From Mustelus asterias (Eukaryota), in assembly GCF_964213995.1 (NCBI RefSeq), contig NC_135808.1, positions 3,658,001 through 3,722,000 on the forward strand: a DNA stretch of 64,000 nt, written 5' to 3'. The notes under the pieces are model-generated. The model did not search any database. It was not told the origin of the DNA and saw only the letters and a list, made by a program, of their open reading frames with translations. This document shows, piece by piece, positions 1,064 to 42,560 of this stretch. The position numbers and the translations under genes were made by a program. Positions within the stretch are counted from its first letter, which is position 1, and each line of letters opens with the position of its first letter.

Positions 1064-3058
1064 TCAGTAGGGGTGGTGATCGGGAGGAGGGGGTGGTGAT
1101 CGGGGAGAGAGGGGGTGGTGATCGGGGAGAGAGGGGGTGGTGATCGGGGAGAGAGGGGGTGGTGATCGGGGAGAGATGGGGTGGTGATCGGGGGGAGAGA
1201 GAGAGGGGGTGGTGATCGGGGGGAGAGGGGGGTGGTGATCGGGGGGAGAGGGGGTGGTGATCGGGGGGGGAAGGAGGGGGTGGTGATCGGGGGGGAAGGA
1301 GGGGGTGGTGATCGGGGGGAGAGGCGGTGGTGATCGGGGAGAGAGGGGGTGGTGATCGGGGAGAGAAGGGGTGGTGACCAGGGAGAGAGGGGGTGGTGAC
1401 CGGGGAGAGAGGGGGTAGTGACCGGGGAGAGAGGGGGTGGTGACCGGGGAGAGAGGGGGTGGTGACCGGGGAGAGAGGAGGTGGTGACCGGGGAGAGAGG
1501 GGGTGGTGACCGGTGGGAGAGGGGGTGGTGACCGGGGAGAGAGGGGGTGGTGACCGGGGAGAGAGGGGTTGGTGACCGGGGAGAGAGGGGTTGGTGACGG
1601 GGGGAGAGGGGATGGTGATCGGGGGGAGAGGGGGTGGTGATCGGGGGGAGAGGGGGTGGTGATCGGGTAGGGAGGGGGTGGTGATCGGGGGGAGAGGGGT
1701 TGGTGATCGGGGGGAGAGGGGATGGTGATCGGGGGGAGAGGGGGTGGTGATCGGGGGGAGAGGGGGTGGTGATCGGGTAGGGAGGGGATGGTGATCGGGG
1801 GGAGAGGGGGTGGTGATCGGGTAGGGAGGGGACGGTGATCGGGGGGAGAGGGGAAGGTGATCGGGGGGAGAGGGGGTGGTGATCGGGGGGGAAGGAGGGG
1901 ATGGTGATCGGGGGAGAAGGAGGGGGTGGTGATCGGGGGGAGAGGGGATGGTGATCGGGGGGAGAGGGGATGGTGATCGGGGGGAGAGGGGGTGGTGATC
2001 GGGGGGAGAGGGGGTGGTGATCGGGTAGGGAGGGGATGGTGATCGGGGGGAGAGGGGGTGGTGATCGGGTAGGGAGGGGATGGTGATCGGGGGGAGAGGG
2101 GAAGGTGATCGGGGGGAGAGGGGGTGGTGATCGGGGGGGAAGGAGGGGGTGGTGATCGGGGGAGAAGGAGGGGGTGGTGATCGGGGGGAGAGGCGGTGGT
2201 GACCAGGGAGAAAGGGGGTGGTGATCGGGGAGAGAGGGGTTGGTGACCAGGGAGAGATGGGGTGGTGACCGGGGAGAGAGGGGGTAGTGACCGGGGAGAG
2301 AGGGGGTGGTGACCGGGGAGAGAGGGGGTGGTGACCGGGGAGAGAGGAGGTGGTGATCGGTGGGAGAGGGGGTGGTGACCGGGGGGAGAGGGGTTGGTGA
2401 CCGGGGGGAGAGGGGTTGGTGACCGGGGGGAGAGGGGGTGGTGACCGGGGGAGAGGAGGTGGTGACCGGGGGGAGAGGGGGTGGTGACCGGGGGGAGAGG
2501 GGGTGGTGACCGCGGTGAGAGGGGGGGTGGTGATTGGGGAGAGGGGGGGTGGTGATCGGGGGGAGAGGGGATGGTGATCGGGGGGAGAGGGGGTGGTGAT
2601 CGGGGGGAGAGGGGGTGGTGATCGGGGGGAGAGGGGATGGTGATCGGGGGGAGAGGGAGTGGTGATCGGGGGGAGAGGGGGTGGTGATCGGGTAGGGAGG
2701 GGATGGTGATCGGGGGGAGAGTGGGTGGTGATCGGGGGGAGAGGGGATGGTGATCGGGGGGAGAGGGGATGGTGATCGGGGGAGAGGGGATGGTGATCGG
2801 GGGGAGAGGGGGTGGTGATCGGGTAGGGAGGGGGTGGTGATCGGGGGGAGAGGGGATGGTGATCGGGGGGAGAGGGGATGGTGATCGGGGGGGAGAGGGG
2901 GTGGTGATCGGGTAGGGAGGGTACGGTGATCGGGGGGAGAGGGGATGGTGATCGGGGGGAGAGGGGATGGTGATCGGGGGGAGAGTGGGTGGTGATCGGG
3001 GGGAGAGGGGATGGTGATCGGGGGGAGAGGGGGTGGTGATCGGGTCGGGGGGATGGTG
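1064..3058 (+). repeat. G-rich minisatellite, ~19-23 bp unit (GGGGGTGGTGATCGGGGGGAGA and GACC variants), in the intron upstream of the MHC alpha1 exon
   Basis: About 2 kb of directly visible tandem units; ends ~70 bp before the alpha1 splice acceptor. Confidence 0.97.
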
Positions 3059-3391: not shown

Positions 3392-3438
3392 GTAAGATCA
3401 GGCAGAGAGAAACAGCGTGTTGATGTACAACCTTACAA

Positions 3439-4307
3439 TGAACTCAATCCATCTCCCAGCACTGACCCCTGGGACACTGAACTCAATCCATCTCCCAGCA
3501 CTGACCCCTGGGACACTGAACTCAATCCATCTCCCAGCACTGACCCCTGGGACACTAAACTCAATCCATCTCCCAGCACTGACCCCTGGGACACTGAACT
3601 CAATCCATCTCCCAACACTGACCCCTGGGACACTGAACTCAGTCCCCCAGCACTGACCCCTGGGACACTGAATTCAGTCCCCCAGCACTGACCCCTGGGA
3701 CACTGAACTTAGTCCCCCAGCACTGACCCCTGGGACACTGAACTCAATCCATCTCCCAGCACTGACCCCTGGGACACTGAACTCAGTCCCCCAGCACTGA
3801 CCCCTGGGACACTGAACTCAGTCCCCCAGCACTGACCCCTGGGACACTGAACTCAGTTCCCCAGCACTGACCCCTGGGACACTGAACTCAGTCCATCTCA
3901 GTCCAGGGGCAGCACGGTGGCACAGTGGTTAGAACTGCTGCCTCACAGCGCCAGGGACCTGGGTTGGATTCCCAGCTTGGCTCCACTGTCTGTGTGGAAT
4001 TTGCACGTTCTCCCCATGTCTGCGTGGGTTTCCTCGGGTGCTCCGGTTTCCTCCCACAGTCTGAAAGACATGCTGGTTCGGTGTATTGGCCATGCTAAAT
4101 TCTCCTTCAGTGTACCCGAACAGGCGCCGAAGTGTGGCGACTAGGGGAATTTCACAGTAACTTCATTGCAGTGTTAATGTAAGCCTTACTTGTGACTCAT
4201 CAATTAATGTCAGTATCTCCCAGCACTAACCCCTGGGACACTGAACTCAGTCCCTCAGCACTCACCCCTGGGACACTGAACTTAGTCCATCTCCCAGCAC
4301 TGACCCC
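3439..4307 (+). repeat. 39/35-bp minisatellite (TGAACTCAATCCATCTCCCAGCACTGACCCCTGGGACAC) in the alpha1-alpha2 intron, interrupted by a SINE
   Basis: About 12 tandem units at 3439-3900 and ~3 degenerate units at 4210-4307. Confidence 0.95.
3906..4205 (+). mobile_element. tRNA-derived V-SINE (HE1-like head, alternative 3' tail)
   Basis: GGCAGCACGGTGGCACAGTGGTTAG A-box head; V-domain TCTGCGTGGGTTTCCTC...GGTGCTCCGGTTTCCTCCCACAGTC; tail ...CTTACTTGTGACT. Confidence 0.85.
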
Positions 4308-32100: not shown

Positions 32101-32210
32101 CAGTAAATGGAACGAATGAAGATTTCTAGCCCACTTTTAGCCTCCAACCTCAAACTCTTTTCTGGTTTATTGTGCACAAAATATTCTATCATACCCAGTA
32201 GGACAGATTT
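29200..32210 (-). mobile_element. Decayed hAT transposase (Tip100/ZMYM1-like), interrupted by a MITE-like element
   Basis: Minus-strand remnants: TTF-type finger VYCYVCKLF...GFTNW...HETSKVH; YSIIVASTPGVSHVDQLTLIFRYV; CHGQSFDNATNMAG; FIPCSSH. Confidence 0.75.
29943..30993. mobile_element. Non-autonomous TIR element (MITE-like, possibly Harbinger-type) with C-rich interior
   Basis: Ends GGGTGATATTCT... and ...GGAGAATCACCC are imperfect inverted repeats; similar termini at 51156-51357 and 61149-61285. Confidence 0.5.
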
Positions 32211-32214
32211 TGGC

Positions 32215-35200
32215 CATAAAGTAACATATTTTGCTTTTCTCTTCACAAAGGAAGACATGAATAACGTATTGGAAATTCTGAGAAACAAACGTTTTAGTGA
32301 AGAGCCGAAGGAAATCAGTATTAGTAGAAAAATGGTTTTGCGAAAATTAATGGGATTGAAGGTGGATACCTCTCCAGGGCCTGATAATCTTCATCCCAGA
32401 GTACTTGAGGAAGTGGCTCGAGAAATAGTTGATCCATTGGTAGATATTTTCCAAAATTCTTTGGACTCTGGAATGATTCCTACAGATTGGAGGGTAACTA
32501 ATGTAAAACCACTATTTAAAAAGGGAGGTAGAGAGAAAACAGGGAACTATAGACCAGTGAGTCTATCATCAGTAGTAATGAAGTTGCTGGAGTCCATTAT
32601 CAAGGATTTCATAGCTCAGCGTTTGGAAAGCAGTGGTATAATCAAAGACAGATCAGCATAGATTTACAATAGGAAAAACATGCTTTGACGATTCTACTAG
32701 AATTCTTTGAATATGTAACTAGTAGAGTTGATGAGGAGAACCAGTGGATATGGTTTATTTAAACTTTCAGAAGGCTTTCAACAAGATCCCACATAACAGA
32801 TAACTATGTTAAGTTATAAATGCATGAGATTGCGGTTAGTGAGTGTCTTGAGATTGATAGAAAGCTGATTACCAGAAAGGAAGCAAAGAATTGAAATAAA
32901 TGGATCTTTTTCCGATTGGCAGAGAGTGACTAGTGGGGTACTGCAGGGATCTATGTTAGGACCCCAACTATTCACATTATATATTAATGATTTGGACGAG
33001 GTAACTAAATGTTTTATCTCCAAATTTGCAGGTGATACAATGTTGGGTGGAAAGTGAGCAGTGAGGAGAATGCAGAGATGTTTCAGCATGATTTGGACAA
33101 GCTGAGTGAATGGGCCTATGTAAGGTAGATGCAGTATAATGTGGATAAATGTGAGGTTATCCACTTCAGTAGCAAAATAGGAAGGCAATTATTATTTGAA
33201 TGGGTGTAAATTAAGAAAGGTGGGTACTCAACGAGACATAGAACATAGAACATAGAACAGTACAGCACAGAACAGGCCCTTCGGCCCACGATGTTGTGCT
33301 GAGCTTTATCTGAAACCAAGATCAAGCTATTCCACTCCCTATCATCCTGGTGTGCTCCATGTGCCTATCCAATAACCGCTTAAATGTTCCTAAAGTGTCT
33401 GACTCCACCATCACTGCAGGCAGTCCATTCCACACCCCAACCACTCTCTGCATAAAGAACCTACCTCTGATATCCTTCCTATATCTCCCACCACGAACCC
33501 TATAGTTATGCCCCCTTGTAATAGCTCCATCCACCCGAGGAAAGAGTCTTTGAACGTTCACTCTATCTATCCCCTTCATCATTTTATAAACCTCTATTAA
33601 GTCTCCCCTCAGCCTCCTCCGCTCCAGAGAGAACAGCCCTAGCTCCCTCAACCTTTCCTCATAAGACCTACCCTCCAAACCAGGCAGCATCCTGGTAAAT
33701 CTCCTCTGCACTCTTTCCAGCGCTTCCACATCCTTCTTATAGTGAGGTGACCAGAACTGCACACAATATTCCAAATGTGGTCTCACCAAGGTCCTGTACA
33801 GTTGCAGCATAACCCCACGGCTCTTAAACTCCAACCCCCTGTTAATAATAGCTAACACACTATAGGCCTTCTTCACAGCTCTATCCACTTGAGTGGCAAC
33901 CTTTAGAGATCTGTGGATATGTACCCCAAGATCTCTCTGTTCCTCCACAGTCTTCAGAACCCTACCTTTGACCCTGTAATCCACATTTAAATTAGTCCTA
34001 CCAAAATGAATCACCTCACATTTATCAGGGTTAAACTCCATTTGCCATTTTTCAGCCCAGCTTTGCATCCTATCTATGTCTCTTTGCAGCCTACAACAGC
34101 CCTCCACCTCATCCACTACTCCACCAATCTTGGTGTCATCAGCAAATTTACTGATCCACCCTTCAGCCCCCTCCTCTAAGTCATTAATAAAAATCACAAA
34201 GAGCAGAGGACCAAGCACTGATCCCTGTGGCACTCCGCTAGCAACCTGCCTCCAATCCGAAAATTTTCCATCCACCACCACCCTCTGTCTTCGATCAGAC
34301 AGCCAGTTACCTATCCAATCGGCCAACTTTCCCTCTATCCCACACCTCCTCACTTTCATCATAAGCCGACCATAGGGGACCTTATCAAATGCCTTACTAA
34401 AATCCATGTATATGACATCAACTGCCCTACCTTCATCAACACACTTAGTTACCTCCTCAAAAAATTCAATCAAATTTGTGAGGCATGACTTGCCCTTCAC
34501 GAATCCGTGCTGACTATCCCGGATTAATCCGCATCTTTCTAAATGGTCGTAAATCCCATCCCTAAGGACCTTTTCCATCAATTTACCAACCACCGAAGTA
34601 AGACTAACCGGTCTATAATTATCAGGGTCATTTCTATTCCCTTTCTTAAACAAAGAAACAACATTCGCCATTCTCCAGTCCTCTGGCATCATCCCCGTGG
34701 ACAGCGAGGACCCAAAGATCAAAGCCAAAGGCTCTGCAATCTCATTCCTTGCCTCCCAAAGAATCCTAGGATATATTTCATCAGGCCCAGGGGACTTATC
34801 GACCTTCAGTTTATTCAAAACTGCCAGTACATCCTCCCTCCGAACACCTATTTCCTCCAGCCTATTAGCCTGTAACACCTTCTCTTCCTCAAAAACATGG
34901 TCCCTCTCCTTGGTGAACACTGAAGAAAAGTATTCATTCATCACCTCGCCTATCTCTACTGACTCCATACACAAGTTCCCACTACTGTCCTTGACCGGCC
35001 CTAACCTCACCCTGGTCATTCTTTTATTCCTCACATAAGAGTAAAAAGCCTTGGGGTTTTCCTTGATCCGACCTGCCAAGGACTTCTCATGTCCCCTCCT
35101 AGTTCTCCTAAGCCCCTTTTTCAGCTCGTTCCTTGCTAACTTGTAACCCTCAATCGAACCATCTGAACCTTGTTTCCTCATCCCTACATAAGCTTCCCTC

Positions 35201-35930
35201 TTCCTTTTCACAAGACATTCCACCTCTTTCGTGAACCATGGTTCCCTCACTCGGCCGTTTCCTCCCTGCCTGACAGGGACATACCTATCAAGGACACCCA
35301 GTATTTGTTCCTTGAAAAAGTTCCACTATTCATTAGTGCCTTTCCCTGACAGTTTCTGCTCCCAACTTATACCCCCTAATTCTTGCCTAATCGCATCATA
35401 ATTACCTCTCCCCCAATTGTAAACCTTGCCCTGCCGTATGGCCCTATCCCTCTCCATTGCAATAACAAAAGACACCGAATTGTGGTCACTATCTCCAAAG
35501 TGCTCTCCCACAACCAAATCTAACACTTGGCCCGGTTCATTTCCCAGTACCAAATCCAATGTGGCCTCACCTCTTGTTGGCCTATCCACATATTGTGTCA
35601 GGAAACCCTCCTGCACACACTGCACAAAAACTGAGACCATGGCATCCTCGTGCATCAGTTGCTGAAAATAAGTGCCAAGGTACAGCAGGCAGTAAAGAAG
35701 GCAAGTAGCATGTTGGTCTTCATAGTGAGAGGAGTTGAGTATAGGGATAGGGATGTTTTGCTGCAATTGTATTGGGTGTTGGTGAAGCTACACCTGGAGT
35801 ATTGTGTGCAGCTTTGGTGTCCTTATCTGAGGAAGGATGTTCCTGCTACAGCGGAATGCAGTGAAGATTTACCAAGCTAATTCCTGGGGTGACAGGACTG
35901 TCAAATGAGGAGAGACTAAGTCGGTTAAGA
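32215..35930 (+). mobile_element. Older CR1 fragment (32215-33237, resuming 35633-35930) split by a younger CR1
   Basis: SPGPDNLHPRVL, GNYRPVSLSS and decayed RT; continues after the insertion with KLHLEYCVQLWCPYLRKD; GAGAC at both junctions. Confidence 0.8.
33238..35632 (-). mobile_element. Young 5'-truncated CR1 (HER1-like) LINE with open 642-aa RT region
   Basis: ORF 33322-35250 has complete RT motifs (QHGF, DFSKAFD, GVPQGSVLGP, FADD); endonuclease C-terminal part (SDHN) at 35326-35630 in another frame; (TTCTATG)n tail. Confidence 0.96.
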
Positions 35931-36040
35931 TCATAATTATTGAAGTAGCTCCATTGACATTTCAGATTCCACTTCTTGTTCTATTTTTTAAGGCAATGTG
36001 GTTTCTCCGCAAATTGACAAGTCTCAGTTTTTTTTACTCA

Positions 36041-36808
36041 GTTAATGGTAGGGCATTGGGGAGAGTTACAGAACAAAGAGATCTAGGGGTACATGTTCAT
36101 AGCTCCTTGAAAGTGGAGTTACAGGTGGACAGAGTGGTGAAGAAGGCATTCGGCATGCTTGGTTTCATCGGTCAGAACATTGAATACAGGAGTTGGGACA
36201 TCTTGTTGAAGTTGTACAAGACATTAGTCAGGCCACACTTGGAATACTGTGTGCAATTCTGGTCACCCTATTATAGAAATGATATTATTAAACTAGAAAG
36301 AGTGCAGAAAAGATTTACTAGGATGCTACTGGGACTTGATGGATTGAGTTATAAGGAGAGGCTGAATAGACTGGAACTTTTTTCTCTGGAGTGTAGGAGG
36401 CTGAGGGGTGACCTTATAGAGGTCTATAAAATAATGAGGGGCATAGATCAGCTAGATAGTCAATATCTTTTCCCAAAGATAGGGGAGTCTAAAACTAGAG
36501 GGCATGGGTTTAAGGTGAGAGGGGAGAGATACAAAAGTGTCTCGAGGGGCAATTTTTCACACAGAGGGTGGTGAGTGTCTGGAACAAGCTGCCAGAGGTA
36601 GTAGTAGAGGCGGGTACAATTTTATCTTTTAAAAAGCATTTAGATCGTTACAAGGGTACGGTGGGTCTGGAGGGATATGGGCCAAATGCGGGCAATTGGG
36701 ATTAGCTTAGGGGTTTAAAAAAAAAATAAGGGCGGCATGGACAAATTGGGCCAAAGGGCCTGTTTCCATGCTGTAAACCTCTATGACTCTATGACTTTAT
36801 GACTCTAA
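36041..36808 (+). mobile_element. CR1 3' fragment
   Basis: EQRDLGVHVHSSLK...[14 protein letters not shown]...; (CTCTATGA)n tail. Confidence 0.92.
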
Positions 36809-37260
36809 GTCATCGGATAGTGTTGTTTCATATTGACTTGATTTTAATTAATATGAATTTTCTGAACGAGCAGGCATTTTTTACCCTCCTCAGCCCTGGG
36901 GGCCAAGTTGCCCCTCCCCTCTGTGGTGAACCATCGTTGGTTACCACTGTGGGGTTATTCCAATGTTACTGTTGGGTTAGGGTGTTGCCACTGTGGGGGT
37001 TGTTATAATGTTGTTGGGTTAGGGTGTTTACCTGTGGTAGATGTTGTTATGGCACATCTCGGTCGGGCCCCGCCTCCTGGAGAGAGGTATAAGACCCTCT
37101 GCTCAGGCGGGACCCCTCCAGTCTGAACTGGTGTACTCGTGTTAGTTAGTTCCATTGTTTGCTAATAAAAGCCTTCAATAGCTGAAGCCTTGTACCTCGT
37201 GCTTGATTGTCGCGCATCAATTTTATTAGCAAACATAAAACTCTCGACAGTAAAGGGAGT

Positions 37261-38457
37261 ATGGAACAAATGCTAAAACCAGAGCGTCTGACGTTGGACC
37301 CACGTGCGGTCGGTGCCACTAACACCTTCGACCACTGGTTGAAGTGTTTCGAGGACTACCTGGCAGCCTCTGCAGCTGTTACTACGGACGACGACAAACT
37401 CCAGGTCCTCCACGCGAGGGTAAGCGACACGGTCTACCTTGCGATTCGTGCGGCCACCACTTACCCGAGGGCCATCGAGCTCTTGAAGAAACGATACACG
37501 AGACCACCCAACGAGATCCACGCTTGTTACCTCCTCGCTACACGACGTCGGCAGTCGGGCGAAACCATGGAGGACTACGCCAATGAGCTCTTGCAGCTTG
37601 CCAGGGGCTGTGACTGCAAAGATGTGTCGGCTGAGCAATATATGTACGACCTCGCCCGAGATGCGTTCGTAGCAGGGGTAGGGTCCTCGTACATCCGGCT
37701 TAAGCTATTAGAGAAAGGGAACCTCAACTTGACCCAAGCGATGGAGATGGCTGAGATGCTGGAGGCAGCGTCGAAAAGCTTGGCTCTGTACCCCGAAGAC
37801 CACGCGGAGACAATGTGGCAGGAGCAAGCACAAATCCCTCCTCGCCCCACGGGCTCGCGCTCCCATATCGATCCGACGACGGCGGCAGCTCCAGGCGGCC
37901 AGCGATGCTATTTTTGCGGCGGAGCCAAACATCCACGGCAACAGTGTCCAGCAAAAACGGCGATCTGCAGTCAGTGCGGTAAAAAGGGGCACTATGCTAA
38001 AGTTTGCAGGTCGAAGCCCAAGAACGGCAGTGCAGCCTATGACCCTCCAGAGCGGAGACAATCTCCTTCGACGGCGCAGTACCCACGAGGTCCGACCACG
38101 TGCGAATCCAGGACGGCGCCATCGTGGCTGACGGAGGAGGAGGAAGACCACCAGGAGTCGCTACGCTTGGCGCCCTCACCCACGTGCGATTCATGGGGGC
38201 GGCCATCATGGTCGACGACGACCAGGAGCGACCAGCAGGGGTCCTCAGTATCAACCTCGGCTGCATGCAGTGACGCCCAGGGGCCAACGGTGGCGTCGAT
38301 CTCTCTGGACCAGACGAAGCATCACAGACTTGACTGTTCCATGATGAACATCAAGGTAAATGGTCGTACTGTGTATTGTCTGTTTGACAGTGGGAGCACC
38401 GAGAGTTTTATTCACCCTGATCACGGATCAACGATCCGTGGCGTTTATGTTCAGTAA
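37261..38457 (+). CDS. Gag (two CCHC knuckles) fused to a truncated aspartic protease
   Basis: CYFCGGAKHPRQQCPAKTAICSQCGKKGHYAKVC; protease motif LFDSGSTESFI; the frame is lost after the deletion junction near 38420. Confidence 0.88.
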   Translation: MEQMLKPERLTLDPRAVGATNTFDHWLKCFEDYLAASAAVTTDDDKLQVLHARVSDTVYLAIRAATTYPRAIELLKKRYTRPPNEIHACYLLATRRRQSGETMEDYANELLQLARGCDCKDVSAEQYMYDLARDAFVAGVGSSYIRLKLLEKGNLNLTQAMEMAEMLEAASKSLALYPEDHAETMWQEQAQIPPRPTGSRSHIDPTTAAAPGGQRCYFCGGAKHPRQQCPAKTAICSQCGKKGHYAKVCRSKPKNGSAAYDPPERRQSPSTAQYPRGPTTCESRTAPSWLTEEEEDHQESLRLAPSPTCDSWGRPSWSTTTRSDQQGSSVSTSAACSDAQGPTVASISLDQTKHHRLDCSMMNIKVNGRTVYCLFDSGSTESFIHPDHGSTIRGVYVQ

Positions 38458-39809
38458 TACGCAGAGGGGCAAGACCAAGAATGATAAGATCTTGCGGTGG
38501 AGAATTGAGCTCTCCACCTATAATTACGATATTATGTATCGTCCAGGGAAGCTCAATGAGCCCTCGGATGCCCTCTCGCGCGGAACATGCGCCATCATGC
38601 AGGAGGACCGCTTGAAGGCCCTCCACAATGACCTGTGCCATCCTGGAGTCACCCGACTCTACCACTTCGTAAAAGCCCGCAACCTGCCCTACTCGGTGGA
38701 GGATGTCAGGTCAGTAACAAGAAGCTGTCGGATTTGCGCGGAATGCAAACCGCACTTTTATCGACCGGACCGGGCACAATTGGTCAAGGCCACTCGCCCC
38801 TTCGAGAGGCTGAGTGTGGATTTTAAGGGCCCCCTTCCCTCAACGGACCGGAATGTCTATTTTCTCAATATAATAGATGAATACTCCCGGTTCCCGTTTG
38901 TTGTCCCCTGTGCGGACACGTCGACTGCCACAGTGATTAAGGCATTCAGTGATCTTTTTACCCTGTTCGGGTACCCCTGCTACATACATAGCGACAGGGG
39001 CTCGTCGTTCATAAGTAACGACTTGAGGCAATTCCTGCTCTCATACGGGATTGCCTCTAGTAGAACCACGAGCTACAACCCTAGGGGTAACGGACAGGTG
39101 GAGAGGGAGAATGCTACAGTCTGGAAGGCTGTCCTACTGGTGCTGAAATCCAGGGGCCTTCCAGTCTCCCGTTGGCAGGAGGTCCTTCCAAATGCGCTTC
39201 ATTCCATTCGCTCCCTCGTGGGGAGTAGCAACCAATGCTACTCCCCACGAGAGGATGTTCTCATTCCCTCGGAAGTCGTCCTCGGGGATCTCCTTACCAG
39301 CCTGGTTGATGTACCCAGGACCTGTCCTTCGGCGGCGACATGTGAGGGCCCGCAGGTCCGACCCCTTGGTCGAACCGGTCCAACTCCTCCACGCCAACCC
39401 TCAGTATGCCTATGTGGCATATCCTGATGGGCGAGAGGACACAGTCTCCATTCGAGACCTGGCGCCCGCAGGGGACGTAGCAACTCCTGTCACTCCTATA
39501 CCCCCCGTCACGAACCCCCTTTCACTTCTTTCTTCCCCAGACGTGGCGCGGTCAGCACCGGGACCAGTGCATAACAGTTATACTCCCATGTACAGCTTGC
39601 CTGAGACTCGGAGATCGGCGCCACCACAGAAGGTTCCAGGATCCCCTGCACCATCGCCTCACCAGGGTCAACCGGCCCGGGAGTCCTCGAGGGGACAGCC
39701 GGACGCTGTTTTGGAGAGAATGCCACCGCAAGCACCTGCTCCGGTGTCGCAACCGGTGTTGAGGAGATCACAGCGACGGTGCGGTCCTCCAGACCGTCTG
39801 GACTTGTGA
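38411..39809 (+). pseudogene. RNase H C-terminus plus integrase, with a frameshift near 39220
   Basis: FTLITDQRS...LRWRIELSTYNYDIMYRPGKLNEPSDALSR; HHCC (HNDLCHPG...CRIC); DDE core SVDFKGP/HSDRG/VEREN. Confidence 0.9.
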
Positions 39810-41399
39810 ATTTTGTATATATGTGACCTGTTTCCGCACCCCGCCGGCCTTTGTTTTTAAAGGAGGGGTGAATGTGGTGAACCATCGTTGGTTACCACCG
39901 TGGGGTTATTCCAATGTTACTGTTGGGTTAGGGTGTTGCCACTGTGGGGGTTGTTATAATGTTGTTGGGTTAGGGTGTTTACCTGTGGTAGATGTTGTTA
40001 TGGCACATCCCGGTCGGGCCCTGCCTCCTGGGGAGAGGTATAAGACCCTCTGCTCAGGCGGGACCCCTCCAGTCTGAATTGGTGTACTCGTGTTAGTTAG
40101 TTCCATTGTTTGCTAATAAAAGCCTTCAATAGCTGAAGCCTTGTACCTCGTGCTTGATTGTCGCGCATCACCCTCATCGATAACTGGTGCCTCGCACCTC
40201 ACCTTGACAACCTTGCCTCACTGCTGGCTCAGGCTGCCTGGCTATGGCCTCGCCTGCCCAGGCCTCCTCAGCCCTGCCAGGGGGTTGAGTCAGTGCTGCA
40301 GCTGCTCATAGGAGTGTCAGTTCCTCTGGCACCCCCCGGAGATAGACTGCGAACTGATAGCACTCTGTGTACTGCTGTTAGAGTTTGTAAATGAAGGGAT
40401 TTTGGTGAAAAGATTTCTGCTTCTAACGACTTATTACAGTATGAGAGAGATTGTATGTGTTGTGTTTGGTGATAGAGGTTGTGTGTGAGAGAGAAACTGC
40501 AGAGGATTTTATGGAACCCACAAGAGCAGGGAATGTGACATGGGAGGTGACGGAAATAGGCTGGATGTAAGATTTTAATTTCCTGATGGCTGATGTAGAG
40601 TCAGCGATGGGTTTTCAGCATGCCAAGCCTTATGCCAACTGTGGCAGGTTCATACGTGCAATTGATTTGCAGAACATGGGTAATCATTAGCGTGGAACAT
40701 GTTATAATAAAGTCCTACCCTCAAGATAAAGTTAGCGATGCAAGAGAATCTTATGGCACCTAATTCACAGTTGTTAAAAGTGATGTACACTTTATGCAGT
40801 TGTGACTAAGATAAGCAAGTTTCCACGTTGAACTCTGTGACTGAAGGTGGATGTTGGAAGTGTTCGGGTGCAGGGAAGTGAGGTGGAGGGAAGGAAAAAT
40901 GTATAGAGTTTGGTGATCAGATGGTGGAGGTGAGGTGGAGGGAAGAGAGGGTGGAAAGGGGGTGGTGTTTGGGTGCAAGGAGTTGGAAAGAAGGGCCTAG
41001 TTTCCTGGGTGTGGTGATCATCCTGTAAGAGGGTGTCAGGTGATGGTAGCAGGCAGGGGTGGTAAGATGGATGGAGTTAGATATAGCCCTTGGTATGAAA
41101 GGGATCAAAGGATACGGAGGGTGGAAAAGCAGGAACAGGTTACTGAGTTGGTTGATCAGTCATGATCAGAATGAATGGTGGAATAGGCTCAAAGGGCCGA
41201 ATAGCCTACTACTACTCCTATTTTCTGTGTTAATCTTGATTAAAATGGGAGGAAGATAATTTTGGTTGGGTGGAATTCAGGCTGCAGAAAATTGGTCGAT
41301 TAAGTGGACTAACAAACAAGTGAAATGAATGAGAACCATGAATGCACATGATGTCTCATGTACATCAGCACTTTTCACACAGTGTAATTACAGCAAGAA

Positions 41400-42560
41400 C
41401 AATGGGTCTCATTCCCTTGATTTTCCTGTAACCCTAGGAGGAGGAGGAAAGAATGTGATGAAGCAGAGCTCTTGCTGTCCAACAACAGAGGCCACTTGGC
41501 CAGTAGCAGACAGCACCAGAGGGGCCCAGACATGGGCATCCAGAGACTGGCACTGATCACATATGGCATCCCCAGAGGATGATGACTGAATGCTCAGCAG
41601 TTCATCTCCAGGGAGTTCAAGGACTTTGTGCACAGATGGGACTTTGAACACATCACAAGTAACCCTCTCTCCTCATAATCCAACTCTCTGGCAGAACGGG
41701 TTCAGTAAAGCATCTCCTTGAGAAATGTGCTTGAGATAACATGGACTTCTATTCTGAACTACTCGGCTTGTGAAATATGCTGAGACAAGACCAGCCCTTG
41801 TCAGCACAGAAAATGTTCTCCAAATGTACCAGCACCCAAGCCAACCTGCAACCTAAAGTGGAAACAAATGTGCGCAGAGCCCTCATGACACAGCGATAAA
41901 GAGTGAAAACGTATTATGACTGCAACACCCAAAGACTCTGCACTCTAGAACCAGGCCAGATGGCCAGGATCCAGACCACACACGGCCAGGACAAACTGGT
42001 AATGGGACACAGCCATGCTCCCCAACCAAACATCTATGTGGTTGCCTCAGATGGTGCTTTCTATGTCAGGAGCAAGCGTCACTTATTACAAGTGCCCGAA
42101 TCAACACAACAACTGCCAGTGTCAATAGACCGTGTCTCCAATCTGCGCCTCCTGCACACTGAAAAAGGAGTTAACACAACAGGCCTTGCAGCCACTGGGC
42201 ACACCCCAGGCATGCCTGATGCCATTCACTTTGTGGACAACAACTTTGAAGACATACCAAGCACAGCCAACTGGCACAATCACACGCTTGGGGCATCTGA
42301 GCAGATCAATTTCAAAGTTCAAGGACTACATACTGACCTAGTCTACATATGGACTCTTTTTTAAGAGATTGGGGGGGAAGAGAGGCGAAGGCACCAGGCA
42401 TAGCAACCCGAGCCAGTGCTTTAAATGGTTGTTACTCCGTTGCACAAGTTTGTGCTCTGTACATTATAAATACTTAAGAACCTGTTACTGTGATTCAATA
42501 TTGTCACATGCCTGCAGTACCAGTTGTCTCAACTAAAACGGGGAAGATGGAGAACAGGTT
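41400..42560 (+). mobile_element. Highly decayed Gypsy integrase remnant
   Basis: QQFISREFKDFVHRWDFEHITSNP...SNSLAER near 41595-41700; KTYYD...LCTLEPGQMARIQ; purine tract at ~42535-42548. Confidence 0.65.

Follow-up and report, generated by a model that had tools for sequence, protein, structure and literature searches.

How does a gypsy-type retrotransposon start its reverse transcription when the position of its primer binding site (PBS) does not fit a tRNA? This question is raised by an element at positions 36922-40170 of the window analyzed here, a stretch of 64,000 nt from Mustelus asterias (NC_135808.1, positions 3,658,001 to 3,722,000, forward strand). An earlier note on this DNA had claimed that the PBS position is a perfect complement of the element's own long terminal repeat (LTR) and that one duplex could both supply the primer and hide a poly(A) signal. 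To our knowledge, self-priming has been proven in the fission-yeast element Tf1 only and is assumed to mark one branch of the chromoviruses. We describe here that the PBS complement is a trait of a whole Ty3/gypsy lineage, with strong covariation, and consider from where the primer might be derived.

Results

The Element and Its PBS Position

The LTRs of the element (298 nt each) differ from one another at 5 positions; all features are collected in Table 1. Positions 37221-37235 are the exact reverse complement of positions 37156-37170 inside the 5' LTR, with one spacer A (37220) past the LTR, and the pairing extends in neither direction. Against 2000 dinucleotide-shuffled versions of the LTR, the 20 nt past the LTR had no complement longer than 12 nt, a length reached once; the claimed 15-nt complement is confirmed. 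The AATAAA that had been noticed inside the partner site (37164-37169) and the upstream TATA box (TATAAG at 37088) are both present. A second copy of the partner site lies in the 3' LTR (40107-40121) and, as had been stated, no complement follows downstream of it; this copy could pair with the PBS position at long range too. An Rfam search of positions 36800-40400 gave no match.

The copy in the window is defective, since about 1.4 kb comprising the reverse transcriptase (RT) and most of the RNase H is missing at 38411-38420. Natural full-length copies have about 4.67 kb and a single ORF of about 1320-1340 codons, which encodes Gag with two CCHC knuckles, protease, RT (YLDN), RNase H and integrase in this order. 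An exact 5-bp target site duplication (TSD) was found in 17 of 20 fetched copies, one mismatch in a further copy, and no call was made for two. At one place (L025-L027) the element forms a head-to-tail array with shared LTRs and a spacing of 4113 nt.

Table 1. Features of the element in the window (positions of the 64,000-nt stretch).
Feature	Position	Strand	Remark
Left TSD, CCCTC	36917..36921	.	matches right TSD
5' LTR, TG...CA, 298 nt	36922..37219	+	
TATA box (predicted), TATAAG	37088..37093	+	spacing kept in most scored loci
Initiator-like CCAGTCT, predicted +1 = A37120	37118..37124	+	32 nt past the T of TATA
GTTCCAT, with predicted pairing to the Gag start region 37261-37267, stacked on the main duplex	37149..37155	+	from fold
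Partner site, likely self-primer	37156..37170	+	contains AATAAA, 37164-37169
GCC past the partner, where the cut is predicted to fall and the template to acquire its new 5' end	37171..37173	+	putative
Short U5-end hairpin TTGAT/ATCAA plus 1-nt spacer A37220	37203..37220	+	
PBS position, 15-nt complement of the partner site, without TGG	37221..37235	+	
Leader hairpin ACTCTC/GGGAGT	37240..37260	+	G-U in this copy, A-U in subfamily B
Gag and start of protease	37261..38420	+	CCHC knuckles 37906-37947 and 37966-38007; DSG at 38386
Junction of internal deletion, 10-nt overlap	38411..38420	.	blastn against natural copy L031
RNase H remnant and integrase, two frames, without chromodomain	38421..39809	+	
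Polypurine tract, 2 nt ahead of the 3' LTR	39859..39870	+	
3' LTR	39873..40170	+	second partner copy 40107-40121, AATAAA 40115-40120
Right TSD, CCCTC	40171..40175	.	5-bp duplication

The window also contains an old remnant of another gypsy-type integrase tail (41900-42364; 150 degraded relatives listed), a G-rich 22-nt tandem array of about 89 copies (1070-3044), a 35-nt array (3435-3899), and, adjoining the element, LINE-type reverse transcriptase ORFs on both strands (32107-36574), which we take to be CR1-like by their motifs. Searches with SH3_Tf2-1 and with the window remnants returned only degraded elements with the integrase before the RT and retrovirus-like elements.

Two-Sided Change of the Duplex in M. 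asterias

Compensatory change between PBS and LTR is evident across the family. In the nearest group of subfamilies, 2355 genomic LTR-PBS junctions fit a degenerate pattern. Subfamily B differs at two adjacent bases on each side, with CT>TC on the LTR side and AG>GA on the PBS side; in four public runs (contigs of unknown kind) all four substitutions occur as the common variants. Perfect pairing over the 13 3'-most positions was found in 123 of 149 junction calls, which cover all fetched copies and about 15 sequence variants; the remaining 26 all differ from each other, barring one copy that was fetched twice, and no mismatched combination was common to two independent copies. In an alignment of 13 variants all 181 of 181 cells are paired, with 6 of 14 pairs altered on both sides and none on one side; the rows of this alignment were chosen as intact, and the tally of 149 calls is less selected. 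The controls gave 0 of 500 for shuffles and 38-51% paired cells for slid registers.

Among the 14 pairs of the 13 intact variants there is no one-sided G-U change in the main duplex, whereas the neighboring helices do use G-U. Since these helices tolerate G-U, the strict Watson-Crick change in the main duplex fits templated copying. Under the standard scheme of LTR replication, such strict two-sided change would be expected if the RT copies the primer into the PBS in every cycle.

A prospective test was made with 30 loci chosen by the PBS alone, all of which carry a 15-nt complement in their own LTR; the free position tracks in these loci, being C:G in 17 and G:C in 13. Moreover, foreign Gag queries led to 60 own-genome loci and thereby to further families. 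Of these loci, 5 were without a called LTR end; a complement of at least 13 nt was present in 34 of the other 55, and many of the misses below 13 nt are single changes at CpG sites. The absence of a tRNA PBS, another point of the earlier note, is borne out by the lack of TGG at all 55 junctions (0/55) and in every metagenome locus examined (see below).

Two single copies deserve mention. In L221 (613-630; same copy as L182) the spacer is C instead of A and pairs with a G past the partner, which gives a match of 16 nt. In L047 (about 545-563) one internal deletion removes the partner site and the poly(A) signal in both LTRs; this two-LTR copy was probably made by the primer of another genome copy.

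Relatives in Other Hosts

The closest named proteins belong to rays and a catshark (73-82% identity), followed, at about 60%, by proteins of a nematode, an anemone, a sea cucumber and a tunicate. With the tunicate homolog (P0104, 59%), the Cigr-1 clade of Ciona is a possible name for the lineage. A protein atlas search returned unnamed Gag-like clusters, and 603 pattern matches in viral contigs included no relative.

Among 80 metagenome loci a repeat pair was present in 21, of which 18 were examined, L056, L069 and L070 being excluded because the repeat is not at the LTR-PBS junction. A duplex of 13-17 nt was found in 14 of the 18 loci and one of 11 nt in a further locus; two degenerate copies have none of 10 nt, and the remaining locus (L072) turned out to be a pair of LTRs lying on the other strand. 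With protein identities of 45-60%, these relatives make up nine families with differing duplex sequences, most of which share just the TAAA end and the following [AG]CC.

In a swap control with 20 variants, own pairs reached 13-17 nt and foreign pairs a mean of 6.0; 2 of 380 foreign pairs reached 13 nt, both between two variants with the same core. The duplex begins 1 nt past the CA of the LTR in 19 of the 20 variants, and since minus-strand synthesis must begin at this place, its position counts for a role in priming. [AG]CC directly follows the partner in 18 of 20 variants, and the loop is 41-55 nt long in 16 of 20. The PBS complement is thus a covarying trait of the whole lineage.

Clade Placement

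Quick trees were calculated from RT (66 rows) and from RT-RNase H-integrase (39 rows), with references that had been thinned by identity and that are domain-defined stand-ins, not Tf1 or sushi themselves. In both trees the lineage forms one long-stemmed branch (support 100) separate from the chromoviruses (96-100). Joining it to the fungal DUF4939 element was rejected on RT-RNase H-integrase (p = 0.024), but not on RT alone (p = 0.17), and a position as sister to all chromoviruses was rejected in neither (p = 0.31, 0.48). A chromodomain or SH3_Tf2-1 was found in 0 of 22 lineage proteins and was also missing from L031, while both controls matched SH3_Tf2-1. The position apart from Tf1/sushi that the earlier note implies is supported by the absence of a chromodomain and by the branch outside the chromoviruses (nesting rejected on RT-RNase H-integrase, p = 0.024).

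The Mag-like identity proposed at the same time stands in part. The double CCHC and the 5-bp TSD are present, and the constrained tree that joins the lineage to the reference rows which we take to be Mag-like, by an RT motif and a K02A2.6-like source name, is 6.2 lnL better than the free tree (p = 0.62); tree support for this placement is just 63-67, and identity to the Mag stand-ins over RT-RNase H is about 30%. Kinship to Mag is weakly supported. Saci2 and CsRn1 were considered as the clade and rejected, their CCCH/CHCC Gag motif and 4-bp TSD standing against two CCHC and a 5-bp TSD in the element. The rows that we presume to be CsRn1-like by their motifs form a branch separate from the lineage.

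Promoter Motifs, RNA Fold and Position of the Partner

The TATA box lies 83-89 nt ahead of the partner end in 48 of 57 scored own-genome loci; it lies at 106-108 nt in five loci of one family, is shifted by deletions in two (judged by eye) and was not found in two. In 29 of the 30 loci chosen by the PBS, the box lies at 82-84 nt. About 32 nt past the TATA box, and 51-55 nt ahead of the partner end, stands an initiator-like TCAGT/CCAGT, with equal spacing in the other families; the mutual spacing of TATA box and initiator is kept even where the distance to the partner differs. Taking CCAGTCT as the initiator by its consensus, transcription is predicted to start at about 37120, which would place the partner inside the transcript at about +37 to +51, in line with the 35-50 nt given by the earlier note. 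The LTR pieces in L284 (about 1398) and L315 (about 1405) begin within about 7 nt of this predicted start after a jump from other sequence, and might mark the 5' end of the RNA.

Folding from +1 predicted the 15-bp helix together with a 7-bp helix, formed with the Gag start, on which it stacks (z = -2.4). Similar helices of the upstream bases with the Gag start were obtained in other own-genome families, and in just 3 of 14 these were above shuffles. The 5' partner copy, 50 nt from the PBS, paired with a predicted probability of 0.87-0.99 in all 14 of the 14 families folded.

The Poly(A) Signal Inside the Duplex

The cost of opening AAUAAA was calculated as 7.3 kcal/mol once the PBS is transcribed and 0.2 before, compared with 0.2-0.5 at the 3' LTR. 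In the own-genome families the duplex would thus conceal the hexamer from the poly(A) machinery, and would do so only at the 5' end. Across 12 recurrent own-genome variants the hexamer is AATAAA or ATTAAA only, while the upstream paired positions vary. The 3' LTR, however, requires AATAAA in any case. Moreover, 5 of 20 variants have no AATAAA or ATTAAA inside the duplex (in two of them the hexamer is in the loop), which means that masking is not lineage-wide. The claimed dual role is thus not general. Masking in this element is likely a physical effect of the modeled duplex and probably a secondary benefit, not the reason for the duplex; that priming and poly(A) masking were selected together is a possibility toward which we remain doubtful.

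Integrated Fold-Back Products

In 16 of the 2355 junctions the PBS continues as the complement of the LTR upstream of the partner. Three of them extend for 6-8 nt before returning to the leader through a short homology, and one passes over into internal sequence in inverted orientation. Five consist of LTR, PBS and inverted U3, bounded by a 5-bp TSD; three, also with a TSD, begin as minus strong-stop sequence and turn round; two run through the polypurine tract, and two are irregular. A second family group yielded 14 more products of the same kinds; many of the products from the two groups have a 5-bp TSD. The fold-back products show that the RT joins partner and PBS in real integrated DNA. 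Elements with one LTR, PBS and inverted U3 are fold-back by-products of the LTR/PBS complement; L272, L273, L279, L280, L283, L309, L312 and L316 are of this structure, with two left-type ends and a 5-bp TSD.

The boundary between the AAAA of the partner and the following GCC can be compared with the products that start as minus strong-stop DNA and then turn round (L276, L281 and L282, at about 1425-1745), of which L281 uses a palindromic U5 end for integration. L276 turns within 2 nt of AAAA|GCC, which is suggestive of the position that a cut there predicts; it is a single case with 4-nt homology. L282 turns 5-6 nt short of the boundary. The left ends of L275, L307 and L308 still carry 7-10 nt of the partner, a poor fit to a clean stop at GCC. 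Because the long fold-backs extend beyond the predicted start and enter U3, they must have been copied from DNA or from the 3' repeat, and the primer is not mapped by them. For this reason the short PBS extension in L266 was rejected as proof of a primer that reaches further 5'.

Discussion

Source of the Primer

Taken together, the element very probably primes its reverse transcription by itself, in some form and independently of tRNA. We consider it reasonably probable that this self-priming is internal and in cis, with the site in the 5' LTR of the same RNA. Transcription would start at about 37120, and in the transcript positions 37156-37170 would fold back to pair with 37221-37235. A 3' end would then be freed by a cut at AAAA|GCC, for which the RNase H of the element is the probable enzyme in analogy with Tf1, and from this end the RT would copy 50 nt (spacer and U5) and jump to the short repeat at the 3' end of the RNA. 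Later the RT would rewrite the PBS by copying the primer, and both sides would stay matched. An internal primer has 36 extra nt at its 5' side, yet the match nearly always stops at 15 nt, and a stop signal or a second cut must be assumed; short PBS extensions past 15 nt that rejoin the leader amount to only 3 of 2355 junctions.

This sharp boundary of 15 nt would need no further assumption if a second, primer-making start lay at the first base of the partner, so that the primer is the first 15 nt of the packaged RNA, much as Tf1 primes with its first 11 bases (PMC7175516, excerpt). Such a start is unlikely, since the TATA box (83-89 nt) and the initiator (51-55 nt) lie far ahead of the partner end with their mutual spacing kept, no conserved TATA box is found about 30 nt ahead of the partner, and base pairing with the Gag start is predicted for the stretch upstream of the partner.

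The primer might also come from another molecule or the other end, that is, from short R-only transcripts of 5' or solo LTRs or from the 3' copy of R, trimmed to AAUAAAA-3'. The same site is present in the 3' LTR, covariation is blind to which copy is used, and in L271, L278 and L315 the PBS is followed first by inverted U3 and the polypurine tract and then by internal sequence, which indicates that the 3' copy does at times engage the PBS. However, the 5' copy just 50 nt away, with its high predicted pairing probability in all families folded, should occupy the PBS first, and the length of the loop is constrained; we regard this origin as rather improbable.

A purely structural duplex (for poly(A) masking, packaging or a translation switch) with priming by an RNA of the host, for instance the 5' half of tRNA-Ile(AAT), is very improbable and largely refuted by the covariation: although an HIV-1 hairpin masks AAUAAA (PMC2645353, excerpt), half-tRNA-Ile priming has been predicted for Bianca elements (PMC6317226, excerpt), and the anticodon loop of the host tRNA-Ile(AAT), the tRNA compared here, has a 9-nt match in the PBS of this copy, the match is just 3-6 nt in other variants while the LTR match stays at 13-17 nt, a host RNA would pull the PBS back to one sequence and cannot track about 15 variants in one genome, and neither one-sided G-U changes nor TGG (0/55) were seen. 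The class of half-tRNA-primed copia elements (Bianca) was rejected on the same comparison, as the PBS variants do not follow the tRNA-Ile half. Tandem tRNA-Ile(AAT) arrays with a spacing of about 2.9 kb and dozens of units on one contig were observed in L197 and L198, the former also containing tRNA-Ser.

Returning to internal self-priming, we tentatively propose an old and widespread lineage of animal gypsy elements whose self-priming would have arisen independently of Tf1/sushi, in which the primer would be cut from the middle of R at the hexamer, one 15-bp helix would both silence 5' polyadenylation and prime, and the RT would keep the two sides matched.

Implications

If this is true, tRNA independence would have been reached by an independent route in a second large animal lineage, one with thousands of young copies, and the geometry would be another (an internal primer and a very short repeat for the first strand jump). 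This bears on whether hairpin priming is ancestral or re-evolving; it has been treated as possibly ancestral (PMC3601003, excerpt). The elements would presumably escape silencing by tRNA fragments. Self-priming would also explain why PBS finders give nothing or spurious tRNAs for these elements, and it would offer a one-helix answer to the old problem of how a 5' poly(A) signal is ignored. The natural subfamilies constitute ready compensatory pairs.

Comparison With Known Systems

Double CCHC Gag, a 5-bp TSD and a single ORF are hallmarks of the Mag lineage (Mag, SURL, Jule), which the element shares, and the best constrained tree joins them. Mag elements use a tRNA primer, whereas TGG is missing from all 55 junctions of the element. 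CsRn1 has a PBS for tRNA-Trp.

In the full-text literature, including the available parts of PMC6934838, PMC8220671, PMC6238403, PMC5443660, PMC3670739, PMC13524379, PMC2582038 and PMC12471100, and with the primary papers on Tf1, sushi, Jule and Cigr-1 as well as Repbase/GyDB outside this scope, we met no account of a non-chromovirus animal gypsy element that primes itself, nor of an overlap with a poly(A) signal. Self-priming has been predicted for the plant elements Tcn1 (gypsy) and TAR (copia) from a complement of at least 10 nt between PBS and 5' LTR (PMC6317226, excerpt). These predictions rest, as here, on a PBS-LTR complement and suggest that self-priming arose outside Tf1/sushi before; Tcn1 and TAR differ in belonging to plants and to other branches, and the excerpt of PMC6317226 mentions neither an internal site nor a poly(A) overlap.

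The HIV-1 polyA hairpin likewise holds AAUAAA within an RNA helix and represses 5' polyadenylation by burying it; proximity to the cap and other causes repress 5' signals besides the hairpin, and cap-proximal signals can be weak without it (PMC2645353, excerpt). The HIV-1 hairpin occurs at both ends and is not a primer, whereas the masking strand of the element exists past the 5' LTR only.

The closest parallel in priming is offered by Tf1/Tf2 of S. pombe, Tj1 and the Tf1/sushi group, in which the PBS is also complementary to the own 5' LTR and no tRNA is used. The Tf1/sushi elements are chromoviruses whose self-primer sits at the 5' end of the RNA, with a structure of three duplexes (bioRxiv 2022.12.06.519325; PMC4600332; excerpts), and Tf1 primes with these first bases after a cut by RNase H (PMC7175516, excerpt). 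A third duplex between loop and leader, as in this "pretzel", was above shuffles (p < 0.05) in 1 of 14 families by a crude energy test. Tf1/sushi and the element have in common a single gag-pol ORF of similar size and a short hairpin at the end of U5. The element differs in lacking a chromodomain or a Tf2-type SH3, in its separate RT branch and in its two CCHC knuckles, and while the Tf1 primer spans +1 to +11, the partner of the element is predicted at +37 to +51, where it overlaps the poly(A) hexamer.
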